Source: Proteromonas lacertae (taxonomy: Eukaryota). From it: a stretch of DNA of 64,000 bases. Positions 31,558-64,000 of this stretch are shown in pieces. The notes beneath the pieces are model-generated. The model was not told the origin of the DNA. It made no database searches and worked only from the letters and a program-made list of their open reading frames with translations. A program made the position numbers and the translations under genes. The stretch lies in the NCBI GenBank assembly GCA_002245135.1, contig NGBS01000331.1:1-64000 (forward strand). Direction: 5' to 3'. Numbering within the stretch: the stretch's first letter is position 1; every line of letters starts with the position of its first letter.

Positions 31558-31607
31558 AGTTTAACCAAAAAAACATAATATAATATAATATAAAAAGCGA
31601 AATAAAT

Positions 31608-31844: not shown

Positions 31845-31911
31845 GTGTGTTTATGAGAATCTTATATAAGAAAACAAAATTAATCAAAGTAATGTATTTA
31901 TTATCAATAAA

Positions 31912-32514: not shown

Positions 32515-32599
32515 TTTTAAAAAATAAAAGTGTAATTAATACTAATAATGACAATATTGACATTATTAACGAATTTATTTTCAAAATAGATTTTATCTT

Positions 32600-33556: not shown

Positions 33557-33587
33557 TTTTTATATTTCTTTATTCTTTTGTTTTCTA

Positions 33588-35075: not shown

Positions 35076-35142
35076 AAATAATCATAATCATAATATCAAT
35101 AACGGCTATATTTCTTATAATTATGTTTTTGTTATTTTTGTT

Positions 35143-35985: not shown

Positions 35986-36040
35986 TAATAATCCCCATAT
36001 TGTCACTAATATAATTTTTTTGTTTATTTTGCTATATTTT

Positions 36041-36913
36041 ATGTTTGGCCGTCCTATTAAAAAACAAGCTGTATCAACAGATCTAACACCTGTCACGAGG
36101 GCACTGACATCGATTACAAGCAATTTGGGAGAAAAAGTTGGAGATGCTAAATCGATTAGAGAAATGTTGGTCGATATCAAGAATAGTGGTACAGGAGGAT
36201 CATCTGGATCAGGTGGTGGTATTGATAGTGCAACTAGCGAGAAAATTGATGGAATTGTGAATGTCATTGGAAAGACCAAATTAGAGAGTTGGGAAAATAA
36301 CATATATTATATGTTATCTATTTTGTATTCTACAATTTATGATGATGCTAATTCAATTGCTTATAATGTCAATAGTATAATGTCCTATATAGGATATCGA
36401 AGTGAATATCAAGATAGTTCATGGAAAATGGAGAATCGTATAAAATGGAGTTCTATGGGTGAAAATAACATGATATTAAAATCTGTAGATGGTCAATTAG
36501 AAATTGTTCAAGCAAGACAAGTTTTACCAAACTGTTATTGCTTTGTAAGATATGCAGCTTTTCAAACATATTTGCAAATAGAAATACTAAATCCTGTTAG
36601 AATAATAACAAGCGAACTAATAATTAATTCAATCTAAACTCCAGATGTAGAAATAATTTTAAGCAAATATTTAGGTTATACAAATAATGTACCAAGAATA
36701 GATATTTTTTTTGAGTCATTAAGTGGACATCATCAAGTATGCTTTTTTGAAATCACTCGTGATATATGTTGTTTCAGTATGAAAAATCCTACTACAGAAC
36801 ATAATGTGGATAACTTTGAAGGTAATTGTATTCTAATCCCACAAAAAATAATATTTCCATATGGTAATAATGTTATAATTCATAAAGATGATGCATTTGA
36901 TTTTAATATATGA
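36041..36913 (+). CDS. Putative fibre/spike-like virion protein, in-frame TAA at 36635
   Basis: Helical N-terminus, Gly linker, beta-rich C-terminus. Frame stays open 92 codons past the TAA. Same position after the ATPase as 55646-56495. Function is inferred. Confidence 0.5.
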
Positions 36914-36920
36914 ATTATAA

Positions 36921-37622
36921 TTAATTCTTCTTGTTTCTCTTGTATTGTTGGTTTTGATTATCACTCTCAGTTCTTCTTTTCATCGGAGCAGGTGTTGTTG
37001 GTACTGGAATAATATCATAATCTGCAGGTTGTGTATACATATTCTCCAAATCTATATCATTTACATCCTGATTCTCAGCACACTGATCCTCATCATCCTC
37101 CTTCTCCTTCTCAAGTTTTTGCTCAAATTTCTTGATACTACTATGCACTTCAAATTTTGGGATAATAGTGTATTTTTCTTTATCCTTCTTATCTAATACA
37201 GTTATCTGTCTAATTCTCAAATCACACTGACACTCATAAAATAAATAACTTGGAGGATCTTTAATCTTGTTTAACCATGCCCAGAATCTGACAGTGTTAT
37301 TATCGTTGTCTTCAGAAAATATCACTTGGAAGCCACATTTCTTATAGTCTTTAACCATATTTGAGTCATCTGTATACTTGATGGCATAATCCACAAACAT
37401 TTTTTTCAAAGGCTCCTTTACATCTTGATAATAATTTTTAATAGGTCTTCTGTTCTTAAATAAGAACCTTCCTGGAGTAAAACTCATGACATAGTACTTT
37501 GCATCTTCAATCTTTTCTGTATTTGGTTCAGCTTCATTACACCATCCTTTTACAGTTAAATAAGTAACATCTCTATCATCTAATGTGATAAAATTAGATC
37601 CATTATTGATATTTGAACTCAT
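36921..37622 (-). CDS. Hypothetical protein, possibly ssDNA-binding (OB-like)
   Basis: Size, architecture and weak N-terminal similarity to 60948-61721; basic C-terminus. Confidence 0.5.
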   Translation of the reverse strand: MSSNINNGSNFITLDDRDVTYLTVKGWCNEAEPNTEKIEDAKYYVMSFTPGRFLFKNRRPIKNYYQDVKEPLKKMFVDYAIKYTDDSNMVKDYKKCGFQVIFSEDNDNNTVRFWAWLNKIKDPPSYLFYECQCDLRIRQITVLDKKDKEKYTIIPKFEVHSSIKKFEQKLEKEKEDDEDQCAENQDVNDIDLENMYTQPADYDIIPVPTTPAPMKRRTESDNQNQQYKRNKKN

Positions 37623-37805
37623 ACCGCCAAAATGAATATTATATATCCGTTTCACAAAAAAGATTTATGTGGTTTGAATATATTTGATACATTTGGAGCG
37701 GTTATACAAATTACCGCGCATACAATGAACATGTGTAAATTGTATAGTTTGATTACACAAGCTTATTTGATAGATTCCATTTTCATCATTTCATTACACT
37801 CAAGT

Positions 37806-38045
37806 ATGTCAGACAACCAAAAAGATACTTCAGATAAACAAGAAAAATATAAGGACTTAGATTATTGTGATTACATGCCATTCGAAGAAGCTGTAAACAG
37901 ATTCTGGGAGCGTATGGAGCAATTAGACCCTAATGGGAGAGATACCTTAGATAAAGAGTATAATCGATTTTTAAAGAATTTTAATCAAGAAAGAGAAGAA
38001 ATAATGAGAAGTAATTATAATAATTATAATAATAGTAACCATTAA
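37806..38045 (+). CDS. Small viral hypothetical protein
   Basis: Charged coding-like part of ORF 37632-38045 from MSDNQK. Confidence 0.55.
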   Translation: MSDNQKDTSDKQEKYKDLDYCDYMPFEEAVNRFWERMEQLDPNGRDTLDKEYNRFLKNFNQEREEIMRSNYNNYNNSNH

Positions 38046-38057
38046 TTAATTAATTAA

Positions 38058-38702
38058 TTACGGTCTATAGTATTCTCTTTTTGATATGACTCCCACAAAT
38101 TTACAAAGACAATGATACACGCTCCATATTAACCGCTCATACTCATCTAACTCCCTATCAAAATGCACCAACTCATAGTGATTTCCTTCTTTTTCATTAT
38201 TACGTATACGTTCCCATAGGCATATTAATACATTATGAACTCCAACTTTTACTGCAGAGTACGGAACAGTATCTTTCAAACATAATTTTATAGCATCATC
38301 GACTCTATTACTTACCTCTATACAATCTTCTACACTGAGATTAAAAAATCTTGTTTGAATTCTATAATGAGTTAGAGATTCTTTAAAAATTTCTAAAATA
38401 CGCTGAATTTGAGTTATATTGAATTTCACACGTGGTAAACTCTCTTCACCAATTGGTAATGCTAAACCAGCATGTCCCTCACAATCACATATTGCTCTCT
38501 CGCTATGCTCCAAAACATCTAAATTAGCTTTATATGTATGAACATCCATTTTCTTTACATCTTTCTCATTGAATAGACATACTGGTTTTACAGCATCTTC
38601 AATCGGCAATGCTCTTTCTAATTCAGTGAAATCTAGAGGTTTAACAATACTTTTAGGTGAGTCAGTATGTTGTAATGGTGGTACAGTGTTCATGATAAGC
38701 AA
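38058..38702 (-). CDS. Viral hypothetical protein
   Basis: 214-aa ORF with normal composition. Confidence 0.7.
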   Translation of the reverse strand: MLIMNTVPPLQHTDSPKSIVKPLDFTELERALPIEDAVKPVCLFNEKDVKKMDVHTYKANLDVLEHSERAICDCEGHAGLALPIGEESLPRVKFNITQIQRILEIFKESLTHYRIQTRFFNLSVEDCIEVSNRVDDAIKLCLKDTVPYSAVKVGVHNVLICLWERIRNNEKEGNHYELVHFDRELDEYERLIWSVYHCLCKFVGVISKREYYRP

Positions 38703-38752
38703 AATAAAATTAATTAAAAAAAAATAAAGTAATTACGTTTAATCACTAACAC

Positions 38753-39301
38753 TTAAAGATCTTCTAAATCTTCTTCTTTATCAAGGTTTTTTGAATCGTC
38801 ACATTGCATGTTTGGCTTGATCAAATGCTTATGTTTTTTTGATGGTACTAATTCATCTAATGATTCAGATATAGCATTTAATAATTTTCTCTTGATGATG
38901 TGTATCTTATTATCATTGTCATTCACAATTTCAGGAATATCATATACATCATACCATTGATCATTATCGCTATCATAATCATCCTGCTCCATATTCGATT
39001 CAGCGTCATTTTCATCTTCACTATATGCAATGAAATCCTTTAAATTACCATTACTATCAACATCACTTGCATTTGGATCATCTTCAGGATCATAGTCATC
39101 TGATTCATCGTCAGTACATTCTGCTTCTCCATACAAGTACTTATACACATTATCTAAATAATCATTCTCTCTTTTTCTTTTTTGACTGAATCGCATTTTC
39201 TTATCTTCTAAATTTTCTTTCTTTTGGTCTTGATCATTTGATTTACCCATTATGCCTATAATATGTATGGTATTATGGTTGTTTGAATCCATAGAACACA
39301 A
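38753..39301 (-). CDS. Acidic hypothetical protein with NLS-like motif
   Basis: D/E-rich; QKRKR; start uncertain. Confidence 0.65.
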   Translation of the reverse strand: MCSMDSNNHNTIHIIGIMGKSNDQDQKKENLEDKKMRFSQKRKRENDYLDNVYKYLYGEAECTDDESDDYDPEDDPNASDVDSNGNLKDFIAYSEDENDAESNMEQDDYDSDNDQWYDVYDIPEIVNDNDNKIHIIKRKLLNAISESLDELVPSKKHKHLIKPNMQCDDSKNLDKEEDLEDL

Positions 39302-39360
39302 TATACAAAAAATAATAAAATGAAACGAATATATTTCAAATATTGATATTATGTTAATTA

Positions 39361-39720
39361 TTAACCTATTAATGTCATATTTTGTCTAGCATATTGCACA
39401 GGAGTTAAATTCTGTGCTGGGTATGATTGTTGTTGTTGTATTGGTGTATGATTTCTCTCCATTAACACTTCATCTGCCAATTTATTTAATATAGCTTGTG
39501 CTTCCTTGAATGTCCATGGATTAATACTCTTTAACATCTGTTGTGCCTCTGGAGGTAATGTTTCGAGTGTTTTCAATACTTGAGTTTGTTGATCATTTTG
39601 TACCGATTGTTGCGATTGTTGATTTGGTTGTTGTTGTGGTAGATATTGAGGGTGTTGACCATCTTGTTGATATGCAACACCACTATTAAAAGTTATTTGA
39701 GGTATTGGACCAGCTGACAT
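39361..39720 (-). CDS. Gln-rich hypothetical protein
   Basis: ORF from MSAGP. Confidence 0.65.
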   Translation of the reverse strand: MSAGPIPQITFNSGVAYQQDGQHPQYLPQQQPNQQSQQSVQNDQQTQVLKTLETLPPEAQQMLKSINPWTFKEAQAILNKLADEVLMERNHTPIQQQQSYPAQNLTPVQYARQNMTLIG

Positions 39721-39794
39721 ATTAAAAACGGCTATAATGGCAATATTGATATTATTGACTATATTATCACTCAAAAATATAATTATTTCAAATT

Positions 39795-40290
39795 ATGGTT
39801 AAAAGAAGTTCAAAAGCGAAATATCGTAAGTATATCATAGGTAAAGGCAAGTTCTGGGATGGAGTAAAGAATTTCTTTAAGAAAACAAAAATTTTATCAA
39901 CAGCAGCTAGCTTAATCCCAGGTGTAGGTCCAGCCTTAGGTAATGTTGTATCCAATGTAGGATATGGTAGAAAACGTAGAAGAAGAGGAGGACAAGCAGA
40001 ATGGAATTATGATGGTGGTATAAGTGGTGGTACCAAAGGAAGTAAAAAGTGTAATTAGTGGTGGTCCAGGCAGTATGCCCTATTTAAAAAATGGCGGAAT
40101 GGCTAATCCATTTGCTGTAAAGATGTTAGGTGGTCCAAGCACTATTCCAAAAAAGAATTGGACAAAAGGTGGTCCAAGTACTATACCGAAATTTTTGTTA
40201 GCAAAGAAAAAGACTGGTTCTGGTAAAAGACGTAAAAGTAGTAATAGTCTCGATAATCGATATATTGACAATAAGATTAGAGTTTTCTAG
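39795..40290 (+). CDS. Basic core-protein precursor(s) with repeated GG sites (two overlapping ORFs or one frameshifted gene)
   Basis: IIGKG-KFWDGVKNFFKK amphipathic helix, RKRRRRGG, ISGG, MLGG, GGPSTIPK x2. Confidence 0.7.
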
Positions 40291-40348
40291 TCTAATTTTA
40301 TTTTTTCTATTTTAATCGTATTTCTTTATTTTCATTCGAAATAACATA

Positions 40349-40636
40349 ATGCCAAAAGGTGGTAGAAGACGTAGATGCGTTTATGGAAGAAGGGGTGGTT
40401 CATTTTGGGGTAAGTTAAAAAATTGGGGTTCCAAAGCATTTAACTGGGCAAAGGATCATAAAATAGCATCCAAAATAGCTAGGGAATTTGGAAAGAACGA
40501 TATCGCAGATGGATTATCAACAATGGGATTTGGTCGTAGTAGGTCAGGAAGAGGTAGATTACCATTCAATGGAGGTGGGAGTAATCAACAAGCATTATTG
40601 AATGCATATTTAAAATCAAAGGTGGCTCGAATGTAA
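40349..40636 (+). CDS. Adenovirus pVI-like membrane-active core protein
   Basis: GG-SFWGKLKNWGSKAFNW resembles the mature pVI N-terminal amphipathic helix; Arg/Gly-rich. Confidence 0.65.
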   Translation: MPKGGRRRRCVYGRRGGSFWGKLKNWGSKAFNWAKDHKIASKIAREFGKNDIADGLSTMGFGRSRSGRGRLPFNGGGSNQQALLNAYLKSKVARM

Positions 40637-40727
40637 ACTTGACTTTTAATAATGCTAATAATACTTATATTATTATTTTCATTGTTATTTTTGTTAATTT
40701 TATTTTTTCATAACATAGAAATAAAAA

Positions 40728-41342
40728 ATGAGTGATACTGAATCAACTGAATATGTGAGTGATGATAGTTCTACTGATGTGTCTGATAGTGAAGTAGAGT
40801 CAATAAATGAAAATGATTCCAAGATGTCCAAACCAAAAATCACAGAAGCTGAACCAAGTGATGCTATGATCAATGAATTACTATCATAATTCTCTCCAAA
40901 GGATATATACAACATATTACAGAATGATGGATCATCATCTCATAAAAATTCAAAAAAAGGTAAAAAACACTCCCATAAATCCAGATCAAGATCAAGATCA
41001 CATGAGAGATCCAAAAGAAGATCTAGTAAGAAACAAAAATCAAATGCTTTAGACGAGCCTAAGTCCAAACGTGGTGGCGGTAGAAAAAATAGCAAAAAGG
41101 ATAGGGACTCATCATTACCTCCTCCTAGTCGTATGACAAAAGCTGAATTACAAATAGCTTTGAAAGAAACTAGAGATCAATTAGGCAAATATATGAAGAA
41201 ATTAGAAAAGAGTTCAAATCCAAAGAAAGAGAAAATAGAGAAAGTAAAAGAACCAGAACCAGAAGAAGATAAACCATTAGGTAATGATATTGCAGGTAGA
41301 GAAATACAAGGCGAGCCTATCGAGCCTGTTTATGTTCAATAA
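40728..41342 (+). CDS. Acidic/RS-rich basic protein, in-frame TAA at 40887
   Basis: ATG at 40728 is in frame with ORF 41133-41342; contains an SRSRSRSH..RR tract. Confidence 0.65.
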
Positions 41343-41408
41343 TATTAATAATACTTATATTACACATTATTATTATAATTAAATTGTTTTTTTATTTTCT
41401 ATTAAGTA

Positions 41409-44400
41409 ATATTTGGTGCTACTCCTACAACAACAAATTCGACGAGTGCGCCGGCCACTTCAAATATTCAAGCATCGAATGTTACAACTGCCCCCAGTTA
41501 TAATAATACAACTTCAATACCTACAACTGGTGCAGGTTATAATAATCAAAGTTCAAATGCTGCAAGTTACGCCGGAATGATGGCAGGTGCTGCTGCCGCC
41601 ACGGGGCAGCAGCCCAGCCAACATTCCAAAATAACACACAACCAATACAACAACAACAACAACAACAACAACAAAGATATAATATAGATGCTATTATGGA
41701 AAAAATACAACCATTTTTGATTAATCAATATGATTATGAATCAGTTAAGCAAATGGTTATGAATAATACAAAACAAGATTTAGAAAATGTATGTAAAAAT
41801 GTAGGATTGCCATTAGATATTATATCAAAGTATTCCAGCTATGGTGGAACAATAGATCAATTAGTAGATTACTTACATTATTTCAAATATCAATGTGGTC
41901 GTAGTGTTCCAGAAGCACGATCAGATGTGTGTAATTTAATTATTGGTATGGGTAGTGAATATGTTTTATGGCCAAAAGTAAATTATGGTTTATTTGGTAT
42001 GTCTTTAGATGGATATCCAAAGACAGGTTCAGGAAGAAGAAAACATGTTCATTTCAAACATAAGAAACATCACAGAAGAAATAAACTCAAATTAGAGAGT
42101 ATCCCACGGAGGCATCTCTTGGCTACTAAGAAATTAGGTGGTAATAGTGGTATTATACCATTAAGAGTGGGTCAAAGTGTTGGTCCTAATGAGCATGTCA
42201 TTATTACTAATCCAAGACAACAAATGTATGATGCTGCTAGTGCTGCTTATATTGGAACATCACAATTACAGCCAAGTCAAATACCAGATTATATTCAACC
42301 ATATATACCAAAAGAAACTGTAGGATATGATTATAATTGGAATTATGATAAATTATTTAGTCCAGGTTTGAATAGACAAGCTCGAAAAGAAGTTCAATAT
42401 GCATTAACTAATAATTATGCTTCTTTGCTGCCTAACAATTATCATATTAATTTTTATGATATGCTAGATCGTGAACATAAAACAGGACATTTAAGAGGAA
42501 CATTCCCATTAGCAACATTAGATACATCTAATCCAAGAAGCTATCTTTTGAACTGGCCTGAATATGTTACAGAAGCAGATGTTCAGGCATATGATAATGG
42601 AATGAATAGAGTTACAAATCCTTTGTTACAAAAATTTCCTAAATTACAAAATTATAAATCATTACAAGAGATTATAGAAAAGAATCCTCAATTAGCAGCC
42701 TATAAAAATTATAGACAAGATTGGTTGACCTCAACTTGGGACAAATTAACAGGTAATGATAAAGATGCAATAGAATATTATAACAAACTATTATTACAGC
42801 AGGAGTATTTGCAAAATGAATTAGTTGATGAGTAAGTAAGATCAATCAATATTCAGATCCATATAATTTTGATCCAAATCGAGCTGAAAAAGTAAAAGAA
42901 TATATTGCATTGAATAATCAAAAGGCACAAAGATATATGGATGATCAAGAGATATTAGAAAGATCAAAATTTTATAGATGGGCATTAGATCCAAAAAATC
43001 AGGAACTGATGAATAGCGCTATAGATATGGGTGAAGGACAGTGTACATTAATTAATGAAGATAAATATAGAGAGCTGAATGAAATAGCATCACAGAATAG
43101 TAGAGATTTCATTAACTTTGATTATAACAGAGAGAAGTTAGGTCACTCACTTCCTCAAGAGTGGGTGAATGCAGATAATAAACAAAAATATGAAATAGCT
43201 ATTGGTTTAGTGAAAACTGCTTGTAGTTCATAGTCACAATTTGAAAATTCACAGTTTCAAAAAGCACTTGATTCATTACGTGAATCTGATTTTATGGGTT
43301 TTGCTGGTAATTTGTTCCTGTGTGTAGAGAATGTATTTAGGATATTTCCACAAATATACTATACAATGAAGTCATATTTGGTAGGTGGAGTTACTCCTCA
43401 AATGTTTGAAGTAGATCATGCAATGAAATATGTTCGTGCAATAGTAATGACATGTTTGGCTTATTGGTTATGGAAAAAATCCAAACTACCAACATCAGGG
43501 TTCTTGTATGTAATGTGGTACTTCATTTTCGACTACTATGAAATAATTCGTATGCTGTCAGGTGGTAGATTACCTGCTATCACTGACTTGTATTATGGTA
43601 ATTCAGAAAAAGTTAAGTCAATGTTACCTGAAGCAATTCAAAAATCATGGTTACCTGTAGACTTGTTGTATAACTTTGGTGTTTCATTTATGTTCAATAC
43701 TCATCCATATGTTCGATACTTATTTCAATTAGTTCCATTCTTCTACAAATTTTCTAATATTGGAAATATAGATGCAAAAAATGTAGGTGATACATTAAAA
43801 ACAGCAGCAACTGTAGCTGCAGCTGCAAATGGAGGTGATGCAACAACTGCTGCAGCAGCAGTTAAAGGTATCAGTGAATTATCAAAAGCTATGCCATCAA
43901 TGGCAAAAACTGCTGTTGCAGCTGATCCAACAGGTACATTACAAACTGTTGCAGGTATAGGAACAGTATTCAGTGCATTGACTGCTTGTTTTGGTTTGCT
44001 AGATGCAGGTGGTTTATTAAACTGGTTAAAACCAACACCATATCAACACAAGAATGCAATCAAAATGGATAACTACGTGAAACGTTCACAACAAACAATT
44101 CCAAGTTCACTCACTAATTTTGGTAGAGCAGTGAGTAATTTAGATCAAGCAAAACAACTCAGTGAAGCTATGAGTTACTTTGGAATAGGTAATGGAAATA
44201 ATAAAAAAGTAAAGAAATTAATTTCACGTAGGAAAGTTTTGTATAACAGTATCACTTCAGATGCCTTATCGAACTTTGATATAGAGTTAATTGTGAAAAA
44301 TGAGTTCAATAATTTTCATGGAAAGTTCATGGGAGTGTTCTGCTGGGACGAGCTTGTACTTCTTATACCCAAAAAGAAGAATCAATGGGGAATCATAATC

Positions 44401-44757
44401 AATACACTCACCACACAAGCTAGCCCTGATTCTATAGGTCATTGGGTGGCCTTAGTAGTTGACAATATCAAGAAGCAATTCCTGTACTATGATTCATTTG
44501 GTGAAGATCCTCAACACTTGGAAGAATTTAAAAAAAAATTGAAAAAATTAAAGAAGTATCATAATGAAAAGTATGAACTTAAAATCAATGGAGTACAGAA
44601 TCAAAATTCAAATACTGCTAACTGTGGTTTTTTTGCTATTAATTTTTTGAAAAATATTTTAAGAGATCAGTGTAGTTTCAAAAAGGCTACTGACTATAAT
44701 ACAATAGTGGGTGAAGCAAAAATTAGGTTAATGAAAAAACAATTTGGATTAATATAA
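41409..44757 (+). CDS. Reconstructed ~1100-aa virion protein ending in an adenain/Ulp1-like (clan CE) cysteine protease
   Basis: GHWVAL..YYDSFG..QNQNSNTANCGFF catalytic H-D-Q-C in 43294-44757. Upstream ORFs join via single-base shifts at ~41615 and ~42832 and an in-frame TAG at 43231. Confidence 0.75.
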
Positions 44758-44805
44758 TATATAATATATAATTATTACTTAATTATTTTTTTTTTCTGTT
44801 TTTCT

Positions 44806-45213
44806 TTATGTGTGGTAAAATATTGTATGAGTTTCAATATATTCTATCATCTCTGTATCCACATGAGTACATTTGAAGAATATTGGCATCTTACCATTAA
44901 AGCGGCTTTGTGGCATTCTAATGATTACTTTTTTCATTGTTGGTGTGTATGTAACTTTGGGTCTATCTCTATTTCCTAAGTCACAAGGACCTACAAACAC
45001 TAATATCAAACGTTGACTCATAATCATGTTAATCATTTTGTGTGTTAACTCAAAATACCATTGATATATTGGTTTTCGATGATAAAAAAATATAAGGAAT
45101 TGTAGGCTATACAAATCCAAGTATATGTCTGGACCACTTAAATGATATTTCTTTGTTACCTTGGATTCAAGTTCTGGTAATTTATATTCAATCTGTGGTG
45201 GTAGTGTAAGCAT
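44806..45213 (-). CDS. Viral hypothetical protein
   Basis: ORF from ATG 45213 (MLTLPPQ). Confidence 0.65.
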   Translation of the reverse strand: MLTLPPQIEYKLPELESKVTKKYHLSGPDIYLDLYSLQFLIFFYHRKPIYQWYFELTHKMINMIMSQRLILVFVGPCDLGNRDRPKVTYTPTMKKVIIRMPQSRFNGKMPIFFKCTHVDTEMIEYIETHTIFYHT

Positions 45214-45276
45214 ATATAAAAAATAGAATATACTATATGTATATGTATAATAAAATATTTTAAAATAAAAGAAATT

Positions 45277-45371
45277 AAAAAAAATGGGATTACTAATAGT
45301 CTGTGCTAGGAATCGAACCACTAATGCCAGCTGCATTACTCTTTTTTCCTTGCACAGTCTATCAGATCCCA
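45277..45371 (-). ncRNA. Putative Pol III hairpin RNA (VA-RNA-like)
   Basis: 87-nt stem-loop with a consensus B-box GGTTCGATTCC, a G-U pair only on the minus strand, and a T8 run directly after. Confidence 0.6.
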
Positions 45372-45378
45372 ATTAAAT

Positions 45379-45457
45379 AAAAAAAAGGGCATTTAGATAT
45401 ACCGTGCCAGGATGATTCAAGCCGAATTTCAATGGCGCAATATTAAACAACACATCC
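45379..45457 (-). ncRNA. Second putative small hairpin RNA
   Basis: Imperfect stem with G-U pairs on the minus strand, degenerate B-box GGCTTGAATCA, T8 run. Confidence 0.4.
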
Positions 45458-45615
45458 AAGTAGAAATTATTAAACTTCCATAAATTCCTTGTGAAATTAA
45501 TTTAATAAATAAATAATTATAAATTAGAAACGCAGCCCTCATCGTAGCTAGTCTATCCAATGCCCAATAATAAAAAACAACATATACAATATATAGCATA
45601 ATAAAAATTTATTCG

Positions 45616-46918
45616 TTACAATATTGATTTGTCTCCCTTCTTTCTCTTGGGTCTCTCCAGTATTTTTCTAAACCATGTGGTTGGTGCATCATCTTTTCTC
45701 ACTAACTGCAACTCATAGTGTTTGAATCGAATTAATGAAAAACCTTGAATGTCATTCCCATTGATATCACCTAAATTGTATGAATATCGATTTTTCTTGA
45801 TTATCTTATATACATTGTCTGACCAGTATATGTTCTTATCCATTTTACGTCTTCTCTCTTTGAATCTCACCAAATCACCTACTTCGAAATTTTGACCAGT
45901 ATGATCTAATTTTTCATAATTCTTTAAGTTGTAGTTAATTGATTTTTGTAATATTTGTTTTTGTAATTCTGGACTATGGAATACCTCATTTGGGGTATAT
46001 CCTTTAATTCCTGGTAATGGCTTGTTGTTATAGTCATCTATCACTTCCTGTATTATACTATCTAGTTTCAATTTATAATTCATATCTGGTATAATATGCT
46101 TATCATTGTGATCAATATCTGCCATATATGTAGGTGCATCATATCCCAGATCCACCAAGTGTTTGTACAACAGTCTTTTTATCATCACTCACTGATCTAT
46201 CCAATAATGACTCTATTTTATGCTCTGAACCATCTTTTTGAAAATATGATATTCCTTCAGCATCACATAACTTCTTGATATTTGAAAAACTAGCATCAGC
46301 ATCTGATAGGATACTTACCACATTTTTATGTGTTTTGTTTCCATAGGCATCTGTTTCATAATACCACTTCTGAAATGCATCCAATGTAATATCACCATAT
46401 TTATTAGGCATAAATATTGCCCATACTTTTCTTGAATTCATTTCGATAAAATACAAATGTTCCATATCAGGTAAGAAAAACACTATATCCATTTGGAAGT
46501 ACCCTGGCTTTTTGATAGTTGCGAATGGATTATTTTTTTTATATTTGAAATCGACAATTTGTTTTCCAGGTTGTCTCCTTAAGTATTCACGTACTACATC
46601 TGGTGGTGGAGCTATATCATTCATACTAGACAAATGTTGTGTCATTTTGACAAATTCATTTTCATTAAGGTAATAATATTTTTTATATAGTTCATCTAAG
46701 CGTGATCGATATTGGGCAATTTGGTTTGACATTTGGTCTTCATACGAAGCCTCTCTTGTTGGATGTGTAATATTCGGTGCTCCATGGTTAATATATGTTG
46801 CAAGTGATAAGTTACCATTTGTAGGTAACGGTTTGACAGGATATGGGTTCTGGTTGCTATATGAGCTGTATAAATGTGGATCGTAACTATTAGTGCTAAA
46901 CATATGGTCCAAAAACAA
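45616..46918 (-). CDS. Polinton-type rve (retroviral-like) integrase, frameshift near 46188
   Basis: FQMDIVF, SRKVW, ILSDADASF, LDRSV, YNNKP..G.TPNEV, FEVGDLVR, WSDNVYKI. Confidence 0.9.
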
Positions 46919-47079
46919 AAAACAAAAGTAATAATGAAATTCATTTCATTATGATTATTATCTAAATTAATAGAGTTATATGTCTTTATAGCAACATTTA
47001 AAAAAATATATATCCGTTTCATATATACATATAACATTTGTTCATCGTTCAACATTATTTTCCTTTCAATTCACTTATT

Positions 47080-47884
47080 ATGAGCAACTGGAAGATACTA
47101 TACAAAAACAGCTTCATTAATGATCCAAATCCGAGCATATATAAAATTTTATGTGAGAATTTTAAGACGATTACAGAACATGAGAAAGATTTGCAACGTT
47201 ATAGGTATATTATATTATTATATGTCTATAGCTGGAATGGTAACTTCAGTATAAGGCGTTTCAGAACATGGTACAAAAGATTCACAGAAATTGAAAAGAT
47301 TGATGCTCGACATGAAAGATTAAAAATGTCCAGAGTGTTGATGTCTGTCCTGCTATGTAATATCATGTATAAAGAGGATCTGGACAAAAGCATCGTATAT
47401 CCATTTAATATATATTTCAATTTTGAATCAATAGTATGATCGTATGCTTGACCATGCAATGGAGGACATGGTGGAACTGACTTGTATGTATATCATACAT
47501 TTCGGTGACAACGATTTAGCAAAATGCGAAAAAGAAGAAAACAAGAATTCGAAAGGAGATATAGTTTACAGAAGTACTGCTGAAAGTATAGTAAGTAGTA
47601 AAGTCTCTGTAGCACCGTTGTTTGATAATCTGGATGATGATGATTATAATGATGATGATGATGACAACAACAAGTTGTTAAAGGTGGTATCCACAAAAAG
47701 AAAGTGCAGTACATCTAAAACTCCAAGATTCAAAAGAAAGAAAATAAATCAAAAAAACATTTCAACCAAAAACCAAAAACAAGAAGATAGTACTACAGAG
47801 GAAGAAGATGATGATGATGATAATAACTTCTCACAATATATAGTTGATGATGATGAGGAGCCAGAGTACCAAAATGATTATTAA
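47080..47884 (+). CDS. Intron-containing viral hypothetical protein, acidic tail with NLS
   Basis: GT-AG introns 47205-47231 and 47395-47434 give a continuous frame; intron positions match the paralogue at 29258-30012. Confidence 0.8.
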
Positions 47885-48056
47885 TCTCTGGTCCTAATTG
47901 GTTCAAATGATAGATTGTGTTTGTGTGGGAGTGTTGTTTTCATAATTTACTTAATTAATTAGCATTATAACAAGTCTTATAAGAAATATCAATATTAGAA
48001 AAATAGATGCGTTTCGAGATTTGACTTGAACTCCATTTTTTTTTTTTTTTTATTAC

Positions 48057-48108
48057 ATAGGATGGTCACCATATGGTGTCATATCACACCATATGTTGAC
48101 CATCCTAT
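48057..48108. repeat. 52-bp hairpin next to the right TIR
   Basis: 23-bp arms with one mismatch and a 6-nt loop, preceded by a long T run. Confidence 0.85.
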
Positions 48109-48138
48109 TGAGATTGTTTTTATTGAATTATTTTTTGA

Positions 48139-48384
48139 AATTATATGTCATTCACTTTCTATAATTTGAACTAACAACATAAATAGATTCATCATAAGAT
48201 GAGGATTCAAATGGAATAATTATTTTTGTTTAAATTCAAACAGAAAAGCGAAAAATAATGTAAGCTTGAATTATGATTTGATTATGAAACGGACAAAAAA
48301 CACATAGGGGGAAATCAATACAAAAAATACAAAAATAATAGGGGTTTCAAATTGTACTCATTTCCCCCTTTCTTTCATTATTAT
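48139..48384. repeat. Right terminal inverted repeat
   Basis: Ends CTTTCATTATTAT, followed by TSD AGCTTG. Confidence 0.96.
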
Positions 48385-48515
48385 AGCTTGAACATGGTAT
48401 TGTTGATATAATTTCACAGATTTTCTTTAAATTTCTAAAGTATATCCCATATGATGCAAACCATATATTTGTAATACTTTCGTGAAAAAATGGAAGAAAG
48501 TGCAACATTGTGTGA

Positions 48516-49121
48516 TATTGCGCGCCAATATGAAAAATGCGCCTATATGAAATTAATGATTTTTATCAAAAACTGATATCTCCATAGTTCTTACAATGAC
48601 CTAAACTATATGAATATACCCTTATTTAGTGATATAAGCTCCTTTGTATGAATCTCATATTATGAAATTTAAAGTCAATTATCTAATGAATTTCTTTTTT
48701 TTTTTTCATGTTCTTTTTATGTAGAACACAAAAGCAAATAAACATAAACAAAATATATGAATATTATTGTGAATTAAATACCCCATCAGTAGTTATACTA
48801 AAAAAAAGAAAAAAAGATCAAGCCTCATTCAAGCCATTTTCTATTTTTTTAATATTCATTAATAAATAGTTGTATTTAATATCTATAATAATCTATGGAT
48901 ATATAATATTATTTATATGATTTATGAAAAAATTACAAAAAAAAAATTCTTTAGATAAATGACTTTAAATTTCATAATATGAGATTCATACAAAGGAGCT
49001 TATATCACTAAATAAGGGTATATTCATATAGTTTAGGTCATTGTAAGAACTATGGAGATATCAGTTTTTGATAAAAATCATTAATTTCATATAGGCGCAT
49101 TTTTCATATTGGCGCGCAATA
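48516..49121. mobile_element. Foldback MITE with ~190-bp TIRs
   Basis: TATTGCGCGCC... / ...GGCGCGCAATA; flanked by TGTGA on both sides (5-bp TSD). Confidence 0.85.
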
Positions 49122-49249
49122 TGTGACATTCTGTTTTCAAAAAAGTAAATTTCTATAATGAATCTCTGCGTAATTATTTTTATCTCCATGTTTGAATTTG
49201 TAGTTTATATTTAAATATTGACTTATCAATTATATAACTAAATCGCTGA

Positions 49250-50000
49250 TTCCAATTGTTTGGTAATTATAATCTTTATATTATCATTTTCGCTTAATTT
49301 CAAATATCTCTTCATTGATATAATGATGCAGTAATGCATTACTTAAAGAAGTGCTATCTCTGCTTAATTCTTGTGCATATGTTGATAGCTTGTTGGTAAT
49401 TTTCATTATTTCACTTATTTCTTCACAAGCTATCAACTATATTTTATAATACTGAAGAATATCATTATACTTATCGATCTCCATTATTTTTTTGGTGATT
49501 AAATTTACAACATGTTTCATAGTTGGATTGTTGTCAGTGCAATATTTCTTGTTTGTACCTTTTTTTGTAATGCACTTTCAACAAATACAATTCTTTACTT
49601 TTTTAACTGCAATGTTTATAATGCTATTTCCAAGTATATTTTTCCATTCATCCAATATTATTTTTAGCTTTTTTCTTCTCTCTATACTCTCATTTAACAT
49701 TTTCTTTGATTCCATTCTTTTAATATTTTTACTATTTTAGTTGATATTACAGCATAATCTTTGAACAAGCTTTTGAAAGATCACTCAGATAAATTGTTGA
49801 CTGTATTGCTGTGCTTGTGCAACTATAAATTATAATAATAATCTGGAATACTGTCTTGCATGTCTTTTTAATTAAGTAGCATGCTTGATGATAAACATCT
49901 TGTGCTTTTTGCATTCGACGATTTTATTTTTCTCTCTAGATCTTTCTAATATATTAACACGAGTTAATCAAACATTATTTCAACATTATTTTATAGTACA
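49250..50000 (-). pseudogene. Degraded hAT-type transposase
   Basis: Broken frame containing IILDEWKNILGNSIINIAV and CTDNNPTMK, resembling the hAT D.W and TDN..NM motifs; boundaries approximate. Confidence 0.55.
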
Positions 50001-50593
50001 AATTAGTGTAATGATAAGCATGTATCATGTGGAGTTCTGTTATGTAATGAGTGTTTGTAAATGTGGATATATTTCATTAAACTTAACAGAGTTCTTTAAA
50101 TGGTATAAGTAGGTTAAATATTATTCATAGATTTAGCAAATATGGTTTATATGGATTTTTGATAGATACTTTTTAGAATATACAAAAATGACTTGAGTAT
50201 AGTATGTAATACTTAATATTAAGCTTATTTAATGCTATTGCAGTATATTTTTATTAAAAAAGCAGAAACTTAAACTCAAAAATATAGGACAAAAAAGGAC
50301 GTGTTAAACTACTAAAGGACATGTGTAATCAACGAGAAGTTTTAGTGTATGAAAAGGACAAGGGACGGGACAAAACACAAAAGGACGTCCCGTTGCCGAA
50401 CTCAGCTTCCAGGAGTACCCGTAGGAGATCGTCTCATAGATAGGTATAGGTAGGTATAGGAAGGTATAGGAAGGTATAGGTAAGTATTGGTAGGTATAGA
50501 TAGATATAGAAATAGCTTAGAGGAGCTCCCGTAGGGAAGTAGACCCCGTTGAGAAGTAGACCCTGTTGGGAGGAATCCCGTAGGAACCTTACG

Positions 50594-50796
50594 TAAATGG
50601 GACTATGGGACATTGTCACAGAGTTCTAACGAGTGTTCTAGGAGTCCGTCCCCTTCTATATTCAGAGTTGACCTTTACGGGAGCTTCATCGATGCAATCG
50701 ATGAAGGCCCCGTAAAAGTCAACTCTGAATCTAGAATGGGACGGACTCCTAGAACACTCGTTAGAACTCTGTGACAATGTCCCATAGTCCCATTTA
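50594..50796. repeat. 203-bp near-perfect palindrome, GC-richer repeat family
   Basis: 100-bp arms and a 3-nt GCA loop; arm sequence recurs at ~54887-54935; adjacent AGGTAT-type tandem repeat at 50440-50510. Confidence 0.9.
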
Positions 50797-50809
50797 TATA
50801 CTATATATC

Positions 50810-51622
50810 TTACTATCTCTAAAAAACAAATATTAATGTAATTATAATAATAAATCTCTATTTCTGGATATTAATAATTTTTCTTCAATAAGTCTCTTAC
50901 TTTCTCAGTTTCTGAAAATAAATAAGCATTATAAAACTCTCTTAGAGGTATAATATATCCTAATTTGAAGCAAAACCTTCTAAATTCTGGTGAGTCTAAT
51001 ATTGTGGTACTGACTGCATTGAAGGTTATTAATTTAAATAGATCTTTGTTGAGAGAATCTGAATTGACTTTGGCTTTTACCATATGTAATAATCTGAATA
51101 TTTTATTTTAATCACGTTTTCCAAAACATTTTGAAGTAGTTAAAATGTTACTTCTCTAACATACAACAATTGAATAAAATCACAACTCTTTTGATGCGAT
51201 AGGGGTAATGTGATATCCCTATAGTTTCATATATTATAAAGTCTTATAAATATTGAGTAATTATACATCTAAATAATCTAAATCTTAAAAAATAAAGATT
51301 TACTTAGTCAAACCATCAAGCTTGATGTTTTTTCTTTTATTTTTTTATTCTATAATTAATTTAATATTATGTTAATAATATGTTATTGTGAGTCATCATT
51401 GAGAAATAGATCAAAATAATAGTAATATAAAATGTGCATCGACCGACTGTCAAATTTGATATTTGAAAGATGATGTATAAAACATTAATTTTGTATATAT
51501 GGTTAGATTATATGCTTCTTAACTCATGTTCAATAGGAGGTCAACTAATAGTTAGTATAAGGAAGGTAAAGGTCAAGCTAAAGATATAGGTTTTGACCTA
51601 TAGTTAAACCTATATTTTTTGA
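50810..51622 (-). mobile_element. Truncated, diverged third copy of the hAT element
   Basis: Aligns with 15461-16169 including the 70-aa ORF; both TIRs are missing. Confidence 0.85.
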
Positions 51623-51868
51623 AGCAAACTAAATACATATTTAGCTAATATAGACTAAAATACATTAGTTGAAATGATTAGAACAACTTAATGTTGATCA
51701 TAAGACATATAAAAAGAAAAAAGAAAATATTGAATCAAGCCTCACTCAAGCCTATATTTTACATTTCTCTTTTATATAGAAAGATGTAATAATTATTATA
51801 TTCTAATCATTTTAGCTAATGTATTTTAGTCTATATTTGCTAAAAATGCATATAGTTTGCTTCAAAAA
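51616..51868. mobile_element. Small foldback element
   Basis: ~68-bp imperfect IRs (TTTTTGAAGCAAACTA...); internal TCAAGCCTCA.TCAAGCC motif shared with 48516-49121. Confidence 0.7.
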
Positions 51869-53696
51869 TTTCTAGAAAACAAATGGCGCAAATATTCAAA
51901 CTATTTATATTATCAAAAAAGTATACTGCAGATATAGGCCATATAACAAAGTAAGTAATAAAAGTAACGATTTTTCATCAAGACAAGTAAGAATATACAT
52001 TTAGTTTGTTTTAAAAGTGTCTGGTAGACAAACGGCCAACTATGACAAACGGAGCACAACAATGATGATGATTATGGCAGAGATGGCAGTGATAGTGATG
52101 ATGAAGATAATGAAGTTTTATAAACCAATTTAATCATAACATAATCGATCCAGGTAACATATATAAGGCAGATACTTTTTCTACAATAGCTTATGTAAAG
52201 ATTAGTGAAGATGGAGTATATTACTTTCCTGTTTGTGATAGAGCATACAAACACTGGACTTTTTGGGAAGTAGATTATAAAGATAATGATCGAATTATCT
52301 ACAATATATAAGACAGCCTTTCAATATATGACAAAGATGAAAATTCTAGAGATGCAATAAGTACTAGAATAGCATACTTTTTTAGATCATATTATGAAGA
52401 AGAATATCATATTATTAAAACAGCAGTAAAACAAAATGAAAGAGATGTAATTATATGATATTCAAAAAGAACATTAACAAAGATAGCATTCAAAATATTT
52501 AAAGCTTCAATATTCAATACTTTATTCATGATATAAAAGATGCTATATCTAGATTGACAACAGAACAAAAAGCAAAGCGTTTTCTCCATTATGACAGAAA
52601 TAATACATTCCACAGATTTATGTAGACTTTAATCAGATTCATTTCCCTTAAAACTACACTTTTAGCTATATAACATTTTTTGTTTAATTAATAAAAATTA
52701 CAAAATTAAATAATATTTAAAAAGAATTTGTTTTCATTATAAAGCACAAGGATTATAAAGATGATACTTTGTATATGAGATACATATGTTTTGTTCTAGA
52801 AATATATTCATATGTAATAAATTAAATATAGAAACTAGAAATATTTGTGAATTATCTTTATAAATTTGTATTGTGTTTAATTTTTTTATCTCTATACATA
52901 GATCTGAAGTTTATTATTTAAATTTAGTAGTTAAATTTACAGTGAATTATTTATTTGTAGAGATTATCAAATTTTGAACAAAATTTAGGTGTAAAATTTT
53001 TAAGGAATTTAGTTTTATTTTTTCATTTATCTCATGAACCATTATGATTTATTTTCAGATATTTTATATTAACAATACATATAAGTAGTAGTAATGGATT
53101 ATATAATAATATTACTTATGTTAATCTAATAGTTGATATCGGCAAAAGTTATATATTATTATTAAGATAAAAATGATATTAGTTTTAAAAGTAATTATAT
53201 GATGAAAGCGTCTCAACGGCGCACAACATCTCCAAAAAATAGCTTCATATTCTTATCATCATCTGTTAATACTGTATCTGGATGAAAGTTATTCAGTGTT
53301 ATTTCTTTGAATGCATTGTTGATAATGTTTAATATTTGATCTTGAGTATGAAATCCTTCTAGTATTATAAAGCTTATGGTTTAGAGACTTAAGTAAAGAA
53401 TTCACAATAGATGAGAACAATTTATCTTTATTCTCATCATCATCATTCATTAGAAGTTTTAATAACAAAACTTTCAACAACAATTAAAGAAGATAATTAA
53501 TCTAAATGAACAAGTCAAGAAGATAATCCCATCTGAGACACTAAATAAAATCACATCATAAGTAATAAATAGTAATTATAATACACTTTATTCTCTAAAT
53601 AATAGAGAAAGTAATAGTAATAGCAATCCATCTCTTGATAGCATTAATAATGGTTATATGGTTATATGCTTATGAACAATCTTTAATTAAGGAAAT

Positions 53697-54764: not shown

Positions 54765-55140
54765 CCATTTGGCAACAAGTTAAGAATTGTAAATTCCCGG
54801 TTCTACGGTGAGTTTCAACGATTCTAATAAAAGCCTTACTGATTATGCCTCAAATGCAGCAATCATGGACAAGAACATCTACGATACCTAGAACACTCGT
54901 TAGAACTTTGACAATTGTACCATAGTCCCATTTACAGGACTCCTCTTACAGGACAATCTTCTACGGGTACTGCTGGAAGATATCTAGAAGTGTTAATTAC
55001 CTATACCTACCTATGAGACTATTTCCTACAACATGGACTCTCCTTGCAACGCTGGTGACCTTGTAAGGGCTTTTAATTGAACCTTGGAAACCAACTGGGG
55101 ACAGGGACTTTACAATTGTTAACTTGTTACCAATTGTTAA
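54765..55140. mobile_element. MITE-like element
   Basis: ~33-bp imperfect IRs (GGCAACAAGTTAAGAATTGTAAATTCCC / GGGACTTTACAATTGTTAACTTGTTACC); interior related to 50400-50800. Confidence 0.6.
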
Positions 55141-55200: not shown

Positions 55201-55611
55201 ATGAAATCAATTGATGATACAAACAAAGATAATTATGAGTATGCAGAACATATTATAATATTTGATGATCTTAGTTTAGAGTTGAAAACAGCTAATATCA
55301 TACCAGTATTAATGAAAGAAAATAGACATTTAAAATCAAAAATTATAATTAGTAGTCAATATATTACTGATATAGTACCTTCAGCAAGATCACAAGTAGA
55401 TTATTGTTTAACATTTTATGGATTGAGTAATAGAAATTTGTTTGACTTATACAACTCATTGAATATATGGATACCTGAATATGAAACATTTAAAGAGTTA
55501 TATTTAGCTGTTACTAAGCCACAATATAACTTCTTATATATTGATAATGTTAAAAAAGTGTTTAGAGCTAACTTCAATATATTGATTGAAGACCATTCTG
55601 AAGTTTCTTGA
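55201..55611 (+). pseudogene. C-terminal half of an A32-type packaging ATPase
   Basis: IIFDD, NRHLKSKIIISSQY; clearly homologous to 35143-35985; Walker A is missing. Confidence 0.88.
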
Positions 55612-55645
55612 TGTTTTTATTGATTTTGTTATTTTATTGTTTATT

Positions 55646-56495
55646 AATACAAAAAATGTTTATTGGGGATAGACAAACTATTGATTTAAACATAGATCAA
55701 ACAAAATTAGCTAATGATATTGCTGATAAAATAAATCTAATTGATGAAGCTAAATTAGCAATAGATATTGCATCTAAAGTTGTTATACCACCTTCATCAA
55801 TAACACCAGAAGATAAAGTAGATATAACATCAAGTATAATAACTAGTGTAAATAGTAATACTACTAAAGAAGTAGATTCAAAAAAATTAGAATTAGAAGA
55901 ATATTTGAAATCAATAAAAGATATAATCAATAAACAAGTACTTGTACTATGTGATTCAATAAACAATACAGTTAATAGTATACCTCGAAATTTAGTACCA
56001 AAACCTTATTGTTTACATAAACAACATACTAGTTATACAGTGAAAAGAAGAATTAATGGTATATGGGATAGTGATGATAAAACATTTAAAATACCTACTA
56101 AAATAGAAATGTTTGAAAACTTTATGAAGATTAAATTATATGATGGTTTTACATGTAATTATGAAGGATGTGATGGTCATGAATTATATCTTGAACCTCA
56201 AAATTTTATAAAAGCTGAGCCTGGTAGAGAAGGTTTATTACCACAATACTATAATAAAGTATTACAAGTATACAGTGGGAAATCATTCCCTATAAGAGCT
56301 ACAAATGATAAAAATACATATCATACATTAACTAATAGACCATATTTTCAAATAAATCATATATTACAAAATGATAATAATCAACCTAATTTACATATAA
56401 TAGTAAATGGTTACCCTCAACAACCTTATTTAGCAATACCAAGGCAAACATCCTTCACAGACTATATAGATACAGGTGTTACAGATTTCTTTTAA
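55646..56495 (+). CDS. Putative fibre/spike-like virion protein
   Basis: Repeated KLA.DIA.K helical N-terminus, beta-rich C-terminus; follows the ATPase; start approximate. Confidence 0.5.
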
Positions 56496-56568
56496 TCTTT
56501 TTATTAAATTACGCATATTTTTAAACCCTGTCCCAAATCATTTTAAGATAGAGATTCGTTTTTAAAAT

Positions 56569-57051
56569 TTAGACTATGTTTATCGTAGTTTGATCATTGT
56601 TTCCTTTAACTTCTTCTTGTACTTCTTCTTCTTCCTCATCATCATCACTATCATCAAATATATAATTCTTCTTTACATAATGTTTCAGCTCAGGATTCTT
56701 CTTCAAATGAACACTTCCCATTCCTTCAGGTAGTGTTAACCACTCAATATACTTATCAAACACTGCAAAATAATGTCTATTTAATCCTCTTGGTTTTACT
56801 GATGGTTTAATATCGAAAAGCATCATGTAATATCTCTTATCACTATACTTTGTCCACATCTTTTGATGGCAAATAGCACAGAATTCATTATAAGACTTTA
56901 TCTCTTCCTTAGGTAATGGACTATATAAATCTGCACTTATGTTATGGTTAAAATATAAGTAAAACTTACAAGTTCCACATATACACTTATCTAAATAATC
57001 TTCATTATTTCTAAATGAACAAAAGAAAGCAAAGTTTACTGAAGCACACAT
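56569..57051 (-). CDS. Cys-rich (putative Zn-binding) protein
   Basis: CICGTC, CAICH, acidic tail. Confidence 0.65.
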   Translation of the reverse strand: MCASVNFAFFCSFRNNEDYLDKCICGTCKFYLYFNHNISADLYSPLPKEEIKSYNEFCAICHQKMWTKYSDKRYYMMLFDIKPSVKPRGLNRHYFAVFDKYIEWLTLPEGMGSVHLKKNPELKHYVKKNYIFDDSDDDEEEEEVQEEVKGNNDQTTINIV

Positions 57052-57321
57052 ATTTTATATTTTTTGATAAAAAATGGTTTTTCAAAAATGCCAGGAAAAT
57101 CAAAACTATTTCTTTTTTCTGTTTATAACAACAGTTTCTCGTCAGAATTTCGATTTAGTAAAAAATATAGAATATTGCAGATAATTCTTTAAATATATAT
57201 TTTTGACACTATTTAAATTCTTTTGAATGTTTTTAACTACACTATATAAATCCATAAATAATTTGATAAATGAAAAAATAACTAAAAATAGTAAGAACGT
57301 TTTCTGTAGCTTGGCCACCAC

Positions 57322-57581
57322 AATAATACTTTCTAATAATTGATGAGTTTTTTCAAAAGATGGATTTCCTTTTCTTTAATCTTGTTAACACACTCAAGGA
57401 ACATATTAGGTGTAATGCGCACAGTCTCATCTACATCAGAAATACCTAATCTTTGAATTAATTTCTCTTTACTCTCATCCCACCAACATCCATTTTTGAA
57501 TCTATATTCCAAGTCTAATCTATACTGTTCATCGACGTATTTGAGTATATATCTGATCTCACTATAAGTTAATTCCTTTTT
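57322..57581 (-). repeat. 260-bp near-identical copy of 32107-32367
   Basis: Direct repeat encoding KKELTYSEIRY...KIKEK. Confidence 0.93.
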
Positions 57582-57838
57582 ATCACCAAGACAAGAAGAA
57601 GTAAAGAAAGGAAGTGATAATAGTGGAGAAGATAAGAAGCGTAAAGTAGAGAATAGTTCCACTGCCGAGGGTCGACCAAAGGTAGATATTGCTTAAGTAG
57701 AAACACCTACAAGTTCTATCCCGGGGGTAGCTACAGTAGATCTAACTACATCACCTACTTGTATAATTAATTAACTTTTGGTTTAAAATTCATTTTTATA
57801 TTTCTATGCGTTTTTATATATAAATAATTTCACATAAA

Positions 57839-58228
57839 ATGTCATTTAATAATACACAATATTCAACTATGCTTAAAGATATGAATGATACATTAACAAG
57901 TCTAAAGCAAGAAGGTCTTATATTTTTTGTATGTATGTTATTATGGATTCTTTATAAAGTTAAAAAGATTGTAGTATGGTTATATCATAGATATTGTCCA
58001 GCAGAAATCACTGAGATATTAAATGAACCAGAACCTGCTGTTCAATTAGCATTAAGAAAATCTACTATTGTTTCTGCTATTCCATTTACTTTAACACCTG
58101 AAAATAGTAGAATAAATTCTAGAAATGTTAGTGATAATGAAGATGAAGAACCATCAGAAACAGAAATAGAAATTATTCCTATTAATAAACCTGAGATTAA
58201 AATTCAAAAACCAATCATAAATATTTAA
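57839..58228 (+). CDS. Small single-TM protein
   Basis: GLIFFVCMLLWILY hydrophobic segment. Confidence 0.7.
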   Translation: MSFNNTQYSTMLKDMNDTLTSLKQEGLIFFVCMLLWILYKVKKIVVWLYHRYCPAEITEILNEPEPAVQLALRKSTIVSAIPFTLTPENSRINSRNVSDNEDEEPSETEIEIIPINKPEIKIQKPIINI

Positions 58229-58408
58229 TTTTATATATAGTCTTTTTTTCGTATTTGATTTTGAAAGTTGTTTTATTGTTCCCCCTTAAAAAATTACATA
58301 AAGAAAAACCGTTTTTTTCATTCACACTTTTCTTACTCATTTTCAGTATTTTATTTTTTCATTTTTTTACTTTAATAGAAAATTAATTATTCAATTATTC
58401 AATCAAAA

Positions 58409-59581: not shown

Positions 59582-59751
59582 GTATTAATATATACTTTAA
59601 ATTTGTCTGGTTTATGCTTTAATCCATATACTTGAAAAAAGCACTTTGAATTCATTACTTTGATAAAAATTGGTGTTTGTTTAATATGTAAAAAATAACA
59701 TAAATAAAAAACATAAAAAATTATACGAAATCATTAAATAGCGAATTTTTC

Positions 59752-60879: not shown

Positions 60880-60947
60880 TCAAAACAATATATATAAAAA
60901 ATATGAATGATATATATTTAAAGAATTAATGAATTAAAATAATTAAA

Positions 60948-61721: not shown

Positions 61722-61805
61722 TTTATATAAGGGAGAGATGAAAATAAAAAATGATTAAAAAATGTCAAGAAAAATGAAAATGAAAATTTCTTTTTTTTTT
61801 AAAGT

Positions 61806-61882
61806 CGACCAATCAAATCATCCGACCAATCAAATTTCATATTTCCATTTTTGATTTATTTCGCGAATTCTGTCTATATATA
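61806..61882. promoter_or_regulatory. Putative bidirectional promoter
   Basis: CGACCAATCAAAT x2 (61806, 61823), TTTCGCGAA and TATATATA between divergent genes. Confidence 0.5.
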
Positions 61883-63934: not shown

Positions 63935-64000
63935 TAAAGGGACAGGGCAGTGGCGGGACAAGGGCATGTCCCGGGCAAAAATTGAAAGGGGCGTCCTTTA

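Follow-up and report, generated by a model that had tools for sequence, protein, structure and literature searches.

The window analysed here is 64,000 nt of Proteromonas lacertae DNA (contig NGBS01000331.1, positions 1 to 64,000, forward strand). It is AT-rich eukaryotic sequence (~74% AT) with glycosyltransferase genes in its left part. To their right lies a decayed Maverick/Polinton-like element, bounded as follows.

28971-28976: left TSD, AGCTTG, 6 bp
28977-48384, no strand assigned: Maverick/Polinton-like element, 19,408 nt, decayed, recognised by TIRs, TSD and empty-site frame, with no pPolB found within
28977-29235, plus strand: left TIR, 259 nt, starting ATAATAAT, 98% identical to the right TIR
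48127-48384, minus strand: right TIR
48385-48390: right TSD, AGCTTG, 6 bp

The TIR pair has a single mismatch in its first 246 nt (245/246 identical), and both element termini read ATAATAAT, a short tandem repeat. When the flanks are rejoined without the element, the empty site forms one continuous frame resembling the C-terminus of a hAT transposase (weak Pfam match, E 0.086), which fixes the element boundaries. With near-identical TIRs and an intact TSD, the insertion is young. The hosting hAT-like transposon occupies 28360-28970 and 48391-52036, has an inverted match of 28360-28461 to 51934-52036, and is interrupted by a further inverted-repeat element at 48515-49122.

The element encodes an adenovirus-like cysteine protease (C48/C5) with two Pfam matches over cut-off (PF02902, 32.3 bits; PF00770, 23.2 bits). 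A candidate packaging ATPase, ORF 35143, has weak P-loop matches only (PHROG 2666, E 1.6e-4, and sub-cut-off Pfam). An integrase-like gene lies in two halves at 46903-45616, which match ORF 59752 at E 1e-16 and 1e-17; ORF 59752 itself has an rve match below cut-off only (E 0.005). A capsid-like gene, tentatively the double jelly-roll major capsid protein, reaches 0.97 by Atlas features to clusters in which 10-18% of members carry Capsid_N/Capsid_NCLDV, a low level of recognition, and its fold model, read through with X, failed (pLDDT 28). ORF 32600 is a minor capsid candidate by position only and has no Pfam or PHROG match. Neither a Pfam match to pPolB nor a frame resembling one was found in 28977-48384. 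The 20 element frames also gave no match to ORF 61883, which sits in a separate fragment and is pPolB-like by motifs only. Because no pPolB was found inside, the element is classed as Polinton-like and not as a canonical Polinton.

Element frames other than the two genes described below are interrupted by in-frame stops at 34077, 36635, 40887, and 43231 and by frame breaks near 41690, 42832, and 46186. A recoded stop codon was rejected, the four stops being TGA, TAA, TAA, and TAG. The copy is decayed, and present-day expression is therefore doubtful. At 41406-44757, frames 41406, 41696, 42832, and 43234 follow directly on one another, separated by two frame breaks and one stop, and may once have been a single long gene with the protease at its end. 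About 1 kb outside the left TIR, at 27793-27958, there are short stretches similar to ORF 31608 and to the 3′ end of the protease, perhaps left over from a third related element.

Two genes, R and L, adjoin the right and left TIRs and read outward. Each is interrupted by two short segments, and the scores given below come from the host-trained model described later.

47080-47884, plus strand: gene R, reading outward toward the right TIR
47080-47204, plus strand: R exon 1, 125 nt
47205-47231, plus strand: R intron 1, 27 nt, phase 2, in frame and stop-free, score 15.2, rank 1/77
47232-47394, plus strand: R exon 2, 163 nt
47395-47434, plus strand: R intron 2, 40 nt, phase 0, score 13.6, rank 2/77
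47435-47884, plus strand: R exon 3, holding the end of the shared domain, the shared blocks, and an acidic tail with a basic KRKK patch
47513-47644, plus strand: near-identical blocks in R, separated by 30 nt that are absent from L
30012-29258, minus strand: gene L, reading outward toward the left TIR
29876-30012, minus strand: L exon 1, 137 nt
29848-29875, minus strand: L intron 1, 28 nt, phase 2, stop on retention, score 11.0
29687-29847, minus strand: L exon 2, 161 nt, with a 1-nt frame break at ~29771-29810
29651-29686, minus strand: L intron 2, 36 nt, stop on retention, score 23.5
29258-29650, minus strand: L exon 3, holding the end of the shared domain, the shared blocks, and an acidic tail, its stop 23 nt from the TIR
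29357-29458, minus strand: near-identical blocks in L, with partners at 47585-47644 and 47513-47554

Four GT-AG segments of 27 and 40 nt in R and 28 and 36 nt in L had been proposed by an earlier note on this DNA, and all four are present at these coordinates and lengths. Spliced at both segments, R yields an open 245-aa frame, and retention of intron 2 brings a stop after 119 codons. Intron 1 of R is not demanded by the frame alone, because it is in frame without a stop and read-through is possible. Its removal lifts the R-L alignment score from 69 to 88. Between the R stop and the right TIR, a 52-nt hairpin follows a long T run (48057-48108); it is absent at the left end.

The clean splicing proposed for both genes holds for R only. 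The exons of L total 691 nt (3n+1), a stop is met in exon 2, and the 28- and 36-nt pair fails the open-frame test because of the 1-nt frame break in exon 2. Both intron removals take out stops, and the separate break stays. A 40-nt acceptor variant of L intron 2 scores 24.8 and gives a total length of 3n, but was rejected because the exon-2 stop stays and no open frame results. A third intron in exon 2 was also rejected, with no fitting GT donor and no room in the alignment. The break sits among short homopolymers. At 1-18931 of the window, host genes are duplicated in inverted orientation over 8.5 kb, almost perfectly (99.8% identical), and the two arms differ by 11 gaps and only 3 substitutions, the pattern of consensus indel error. 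Given this pattern, the L frame break may stem from the assembly; genuine decay may also explain it. The duplication itself could be a genuine palindrome, or could have arisen as a fold-back artefact of long reads.

A de novo scan of host genes in the window found 24-26-nt GTAT..TAG introns, and a host model was built from them. It was trained on 4 sequence-predicted introns of 2 host genes, whose self-scores are not leave-one-out, and the window's host genes may be unrepresentative of the genome as a whole. The reference gene lies outside the element.

20179-21583, plus strand, end approximate: host glycosyltransferase gene, with PF03407 on exon 1
20721-20746, 20956-20981, and 21338-21361: its introns, whose splicing gives a 442-aa open frame

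All four viral segments start with GTATAT, end with TAG, and have 6-18% GC against 30-36% in the exons, and thus combine a host-like 5′ signal, GT-AG ends, and intron-like composition. They are 27-40 nt long, longer than the four host training introns (24-26 nt). L intron 1 contains CTAAT, which is branch-point-like, the host introns being too few to define a host motif. In each gene the top two scoring regions are the proposed segments. L has 68 candidates, of which the top five are alternative versions of the intron-2 region and the sixth is intron 1. As background, 25 other viral frames (21,863 nt) supplied 2221 candidates; three of the four segments outscore every one of them, and L intron 1 (11.0) is equalled or beaten by 11. 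No background candidate scores above 12.5, and the top ones lie within open frames. Introns were rejected as the cause of the 7 other element frame breaks, for which the best host-like score was 2.5. The view that the other viral genes are intronless is therefore upheld as far as tested, stop-free in-frame introns excepted. A weak 34-nt intron candidate lies at 30323, upstream of ORF 30405.

Over their first 120 residues, with X at the break, R and L align with a score of 88 against 30.5 ± 5.5 for shuffled sequences (0/2000 as high), and 31/116 residues are identical (27%). Exons were also aligned separately to avoid circularity. The exon 1 alignment reaches the last residue in both genes (12/5000 shuffles as high), and that of exon 3 opens at residue 2 in both (6/5000). 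Exon 2 aligns end to end and alone is not significant (1048/5000). Both intron positions thus align, as the earlier note had claimed, and intron 1 is in phase 2 in both genes. The probability that a random pair among the 27 donors of L matches the pair in R is ≤0.003. At neither site do the paralogues agree in segment length modulo 3 (27/28 and 40/36), which excludes that the segments are coding in both genes. Retention gives a stop in three of the four segments, and retention of intron 2 does so in both paralogues. From this evidence, the introns are in all probability real.

Of the first 26 codons of exon 3, 9 encode the same residue in R and L, yet just 1 of these 9 uses the same codon, indicating that the duplication is old. 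The shared block has 32/36 residues and 31 codons identical. Because proteins with 27% identity share both positions, the introns appear to predate the duplication. Because these old paralogues share the positions while the TIRs are 245/246 identical, the introns also appear older than the insertion, and therefore were not gained after integration. By this comparison, the introns are old.

The R and L exons group with the element genes and not with host genes in GC, GC3, and codon use. GC is 0.33 in R and 0.31 in L against 0.21-0.28 in 12 host genes; GC of 21-23% has been reported in some gut stramenopile lineages (PMC10690189). GC3 is 0.34 and 0.28 against 0.14-0.21 in the same host genes. 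Codon scores of R (+0.14) and L (+0.04) fall on the viral side, and those of all 12 host genes are negative.

A homologue search proposed for the spliced proteins was run on the N-terminal 105 codons of R and found no independent homologue. Among 1.84 billion protein representatives there was one match, P0001, a 96% identical unspliced copy. No usable homologue was found in viral, metagenome, and prokaryote contigs or in longer proteins, the Atlas, Pfam, and PHROGs, and no cellular homologue was found in longer proteins, the 1.84-billion set, the Atlas, and Pfam. The fold model of these codons, with intron 1 retained, is all helical and poor (pLDDT 51), with no match to viral structures at E ≤ 0.001. 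No host homologue of R or L was found within the window, and no related elements were found through the ATPase, the capsid-like gene, the integrase, or a 36-nt block pattern. In P0001, as a second copy, both R segments are kept in a DNA-level call.

R and L are old paralogues of a Polinton-like element and likely carry real spliceosomal micro-introns, probably ancestral, that would be spliced in the host nucleus. The claim that such introns need nuclear host splicing is well supported at the sequence level, by the host-like ends, shared positions, and scores. A quite improbable alternative is that the segments are no introns at all: either two decayed genes happen to hold AT-rich GT-AG stretches, or each locus consists of two small ORFs. 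It would draw on the ~74% AT of the window, where GTATA..AG stretches are common (>100 among the matches listed), on the in-frame R intron 1, on the broken L, and on segments predicted from sequence. Against it stand the coincidence of four sites in two divergent genes, the continuous alignment across every junction, the cross-wise frame lengths, and the top ranks under an independent host model. Gain after integration, whether through introners or through intronisation of a decaying endogenous copy, is less probable still and is largely refuted for this copy. The positions are common to paralogues whose synonymous sites look saturated, the insertion is young, and the second copy also keeps both R segments. 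The four segments share little sequence beyond their ends, and no repeat family covering them was found within the window. What speaks for such gain is the decay of the copy and the precedent of dinoflagellate viral elements, of which ~25% of those classified are described as carrying introners, mostly by secondary insertion (PMC11957031).

Two further alternatives concern the history of the pair. The near-identical blocks of the earlier note are borne out, with 41/42 and 58/60 nt identical. The blocks begin 380 and 740 nt from the element ends. The inverted orientation, colinear blocks, and position of both genes beside TIRs would suit a relic of formerly much longer TIRs that spanned the whole gene and then eroded, as the earlier note had supposed. 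Simple erosion predicts a steady inward fall of identity and is disfavoured because the pattern differs: TIRs of 245/246, unalignable tails of different length, blocks of 97-98%, and then 27% amino-acid identity. A long-TIR relic is therefore unlikely, and an old duplication with recent exchange between the ends fits better. With one copy, gene conversion is indistinguishable from a short-lived recent lengthening of the TIRs across exon 3 and later replacement of the tails. The other alternative, suggested in part by the same note, is a captured host gene. Recent capture is unlikely because exon GC, GC3, and codon use are viral-type, and no cellular homologue was found in the protein collections searched. 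Long-past capture of an intron-bearing host gene as cargo, followed by duplication to the other end and drift to viral composition, is a reasonable possibility, though not the favoured one. Its introns would be real and inherited from the host gene, so that it differs from the favoured reading only in the first source of the gene. It would account for introns that match the host class and occur only in R and L, both adjoining a TIR, as in nematode Maverick cargo. That cargo stands out from its element by composition, whereas the composition of R and L is viral, and the absence of a cellular homologue from those collections also counts against capture.

Under the favoured reading, both introns would have been present before duplication and carried through element replication. 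Nuclear transcription by host polymerase II would run outward through both genes, starting at divergent promoters that back onto ORF 30405 (L) and the integrase (R). Because L stops 23 nt from the TIR, its 3′ end would probably be formed within the TIR. A recent end-to-end exchange, by gene conversion or template switching at end pairing, would have copied ~100 nt of exon 3. The predicted products comprise a ~120-aa domain (helical in a low-confidence model, pLDDT 51) and an acidic tail, with 34 D/E in 125 residues in R, which also has the KRKK patch, and 33 in 104 in L. Acidic tails are also present in other element ORFs. A role as nuclear accessory or regulatory proteins rather than virion parts is our best guess from these predictions and the weakest step of the proposal. 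The adenovirus E1A and E4 genes are spliced terminal early genes, but they read inward and the analogy is loose.

A search for a promoter motif common to R and L gave only the word TCAATTCAYT, which lies upstream of both and has 3 matches in the window. The motif AATATTGAYATTAT is found at three divergent or intergenic sites of the element (32553, 39339, and 39742) and at two places in the inverted repeat of host genes; it is a possible promoter word and is absent upstream of R and L. The downstream motif TGTTTGTT has only 6 occurrences.

A more speculative and rather unlikely extension is that the lineage has a long-standing two-part programme, with intronless virion and integration genes beside duplicated, spliced, outward-reading terminal regulators expressed when integrated. 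Under such a programme, intron 2 would act as a switch, its retention giving a short N-terminal product and its splicing the full acidic-tailed protein, and pairing of the ends would periodically swap tails.

Nematode Mavericks are described as having intron-bearing cargo (wasp proteases, krma kinases) by the TIR or integrase and intronless core genes (bioRxiv 10.1101/2022.07.12.499685). The present element is alike in combining an intronless core with intron-containing genes beside the TIR or integrase. There, the cargo occupies a single high-GC region of 2-5 kb at the left end and is interpreted as host-derived, whereas R and L are diverged paralogues at both ends that read outward, share two intron positions, have the composition of the element, and belong to no known family. 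Intact vertebrate Mavericks/Polintons are reported to be intronless and to encode pPolB (PMC8097293). They share with the present copy TIRs, a 6-bp TSD, a terminal short tandem repeat, and a protease gene, and they have counterparts to its candidate ATPase, integrase-like, and capsid-like genes; this copy differs in its two intron-bearing genes and in having no detectable pPolB. The introners of dinoflagellate Maverick-Polinton-like elements are likewise spliceosomal-type introns in integrated protist elements. They are described as repeated, mobile, and mostly post-integration, whereas the R and L introns are short, dissimilar, and apparently older than the insertion.

Spliceosomal introns are also reported in mirusviruses and in the integrated giant virus punuivirus (PMC12768974; bioRxiv 10.64898/2026.10.09.758095), where those of punuivirus are described as enriched in latency genes. 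There too host-style GT-AG introns occur in DNA-virus genes and are taken as a sign of nuclear expression. Those viruses are described as large, with many RNA-supported introns (~80 nt peak; 176 nt mean), whereas the present element is 19 kb and has four 27-40-nt introns predicted from its sequence. Cryptophyte PLVs are reported to carry group I introns (PMC12220804). A large protist Polinton survey assumed no introns, according to its methods (PMC10120064). Because protist Polinton-like elements are commonly annotated as intronless, spliced genes would be split or missed, and P0001 is an example of unspliced annotation of such a gene.

No report of paralogous terminal Polinton genes sharing intron positions was found in the literature covered, mainly open-access papers. 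Intron-bearing cargo beside a Maverick TIR is already known in nematodes; the new feature is an ancient, duplicated, intron-bearing pair at both ends. If the shared positions are true, spliceosomal introns would have persisted in a small Polinton-like lineage during its replicating phase, which would point to transcription in the nucleus and a lasting bond with one type of host rather than to gain after integration. The pair also provides a straightforward way to ask whether latent or early genes of small integrating viruses are the ones that bear introns, as reported for punuivirus. The weight of the finding is limited by the known nematode cargo, the decay of the copy, and the predicted status of the R and L products.

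A second Polinton-like fragment lies at 55201-63934 and encodes a partial ATPase, the intact integrase-like ORF 59752, and the truncated pPolB-like ORF 61883; no homologue of R or L was found in it. Between the two otherwise divergent elements, 274 nt are 97% identical (32101-32374, in ORF 31912, and 57316-57588), which suggests recent exchange. A GC-richer 200-nt palindrome lies at 50594-50796, with a partial copy at 54887-54935, and the stretch after the truncated pPolB-like ORF, 63940-64000, looks similar and likewise GC-richer by eye. These GC-richer sequences are possibly another mobile element.
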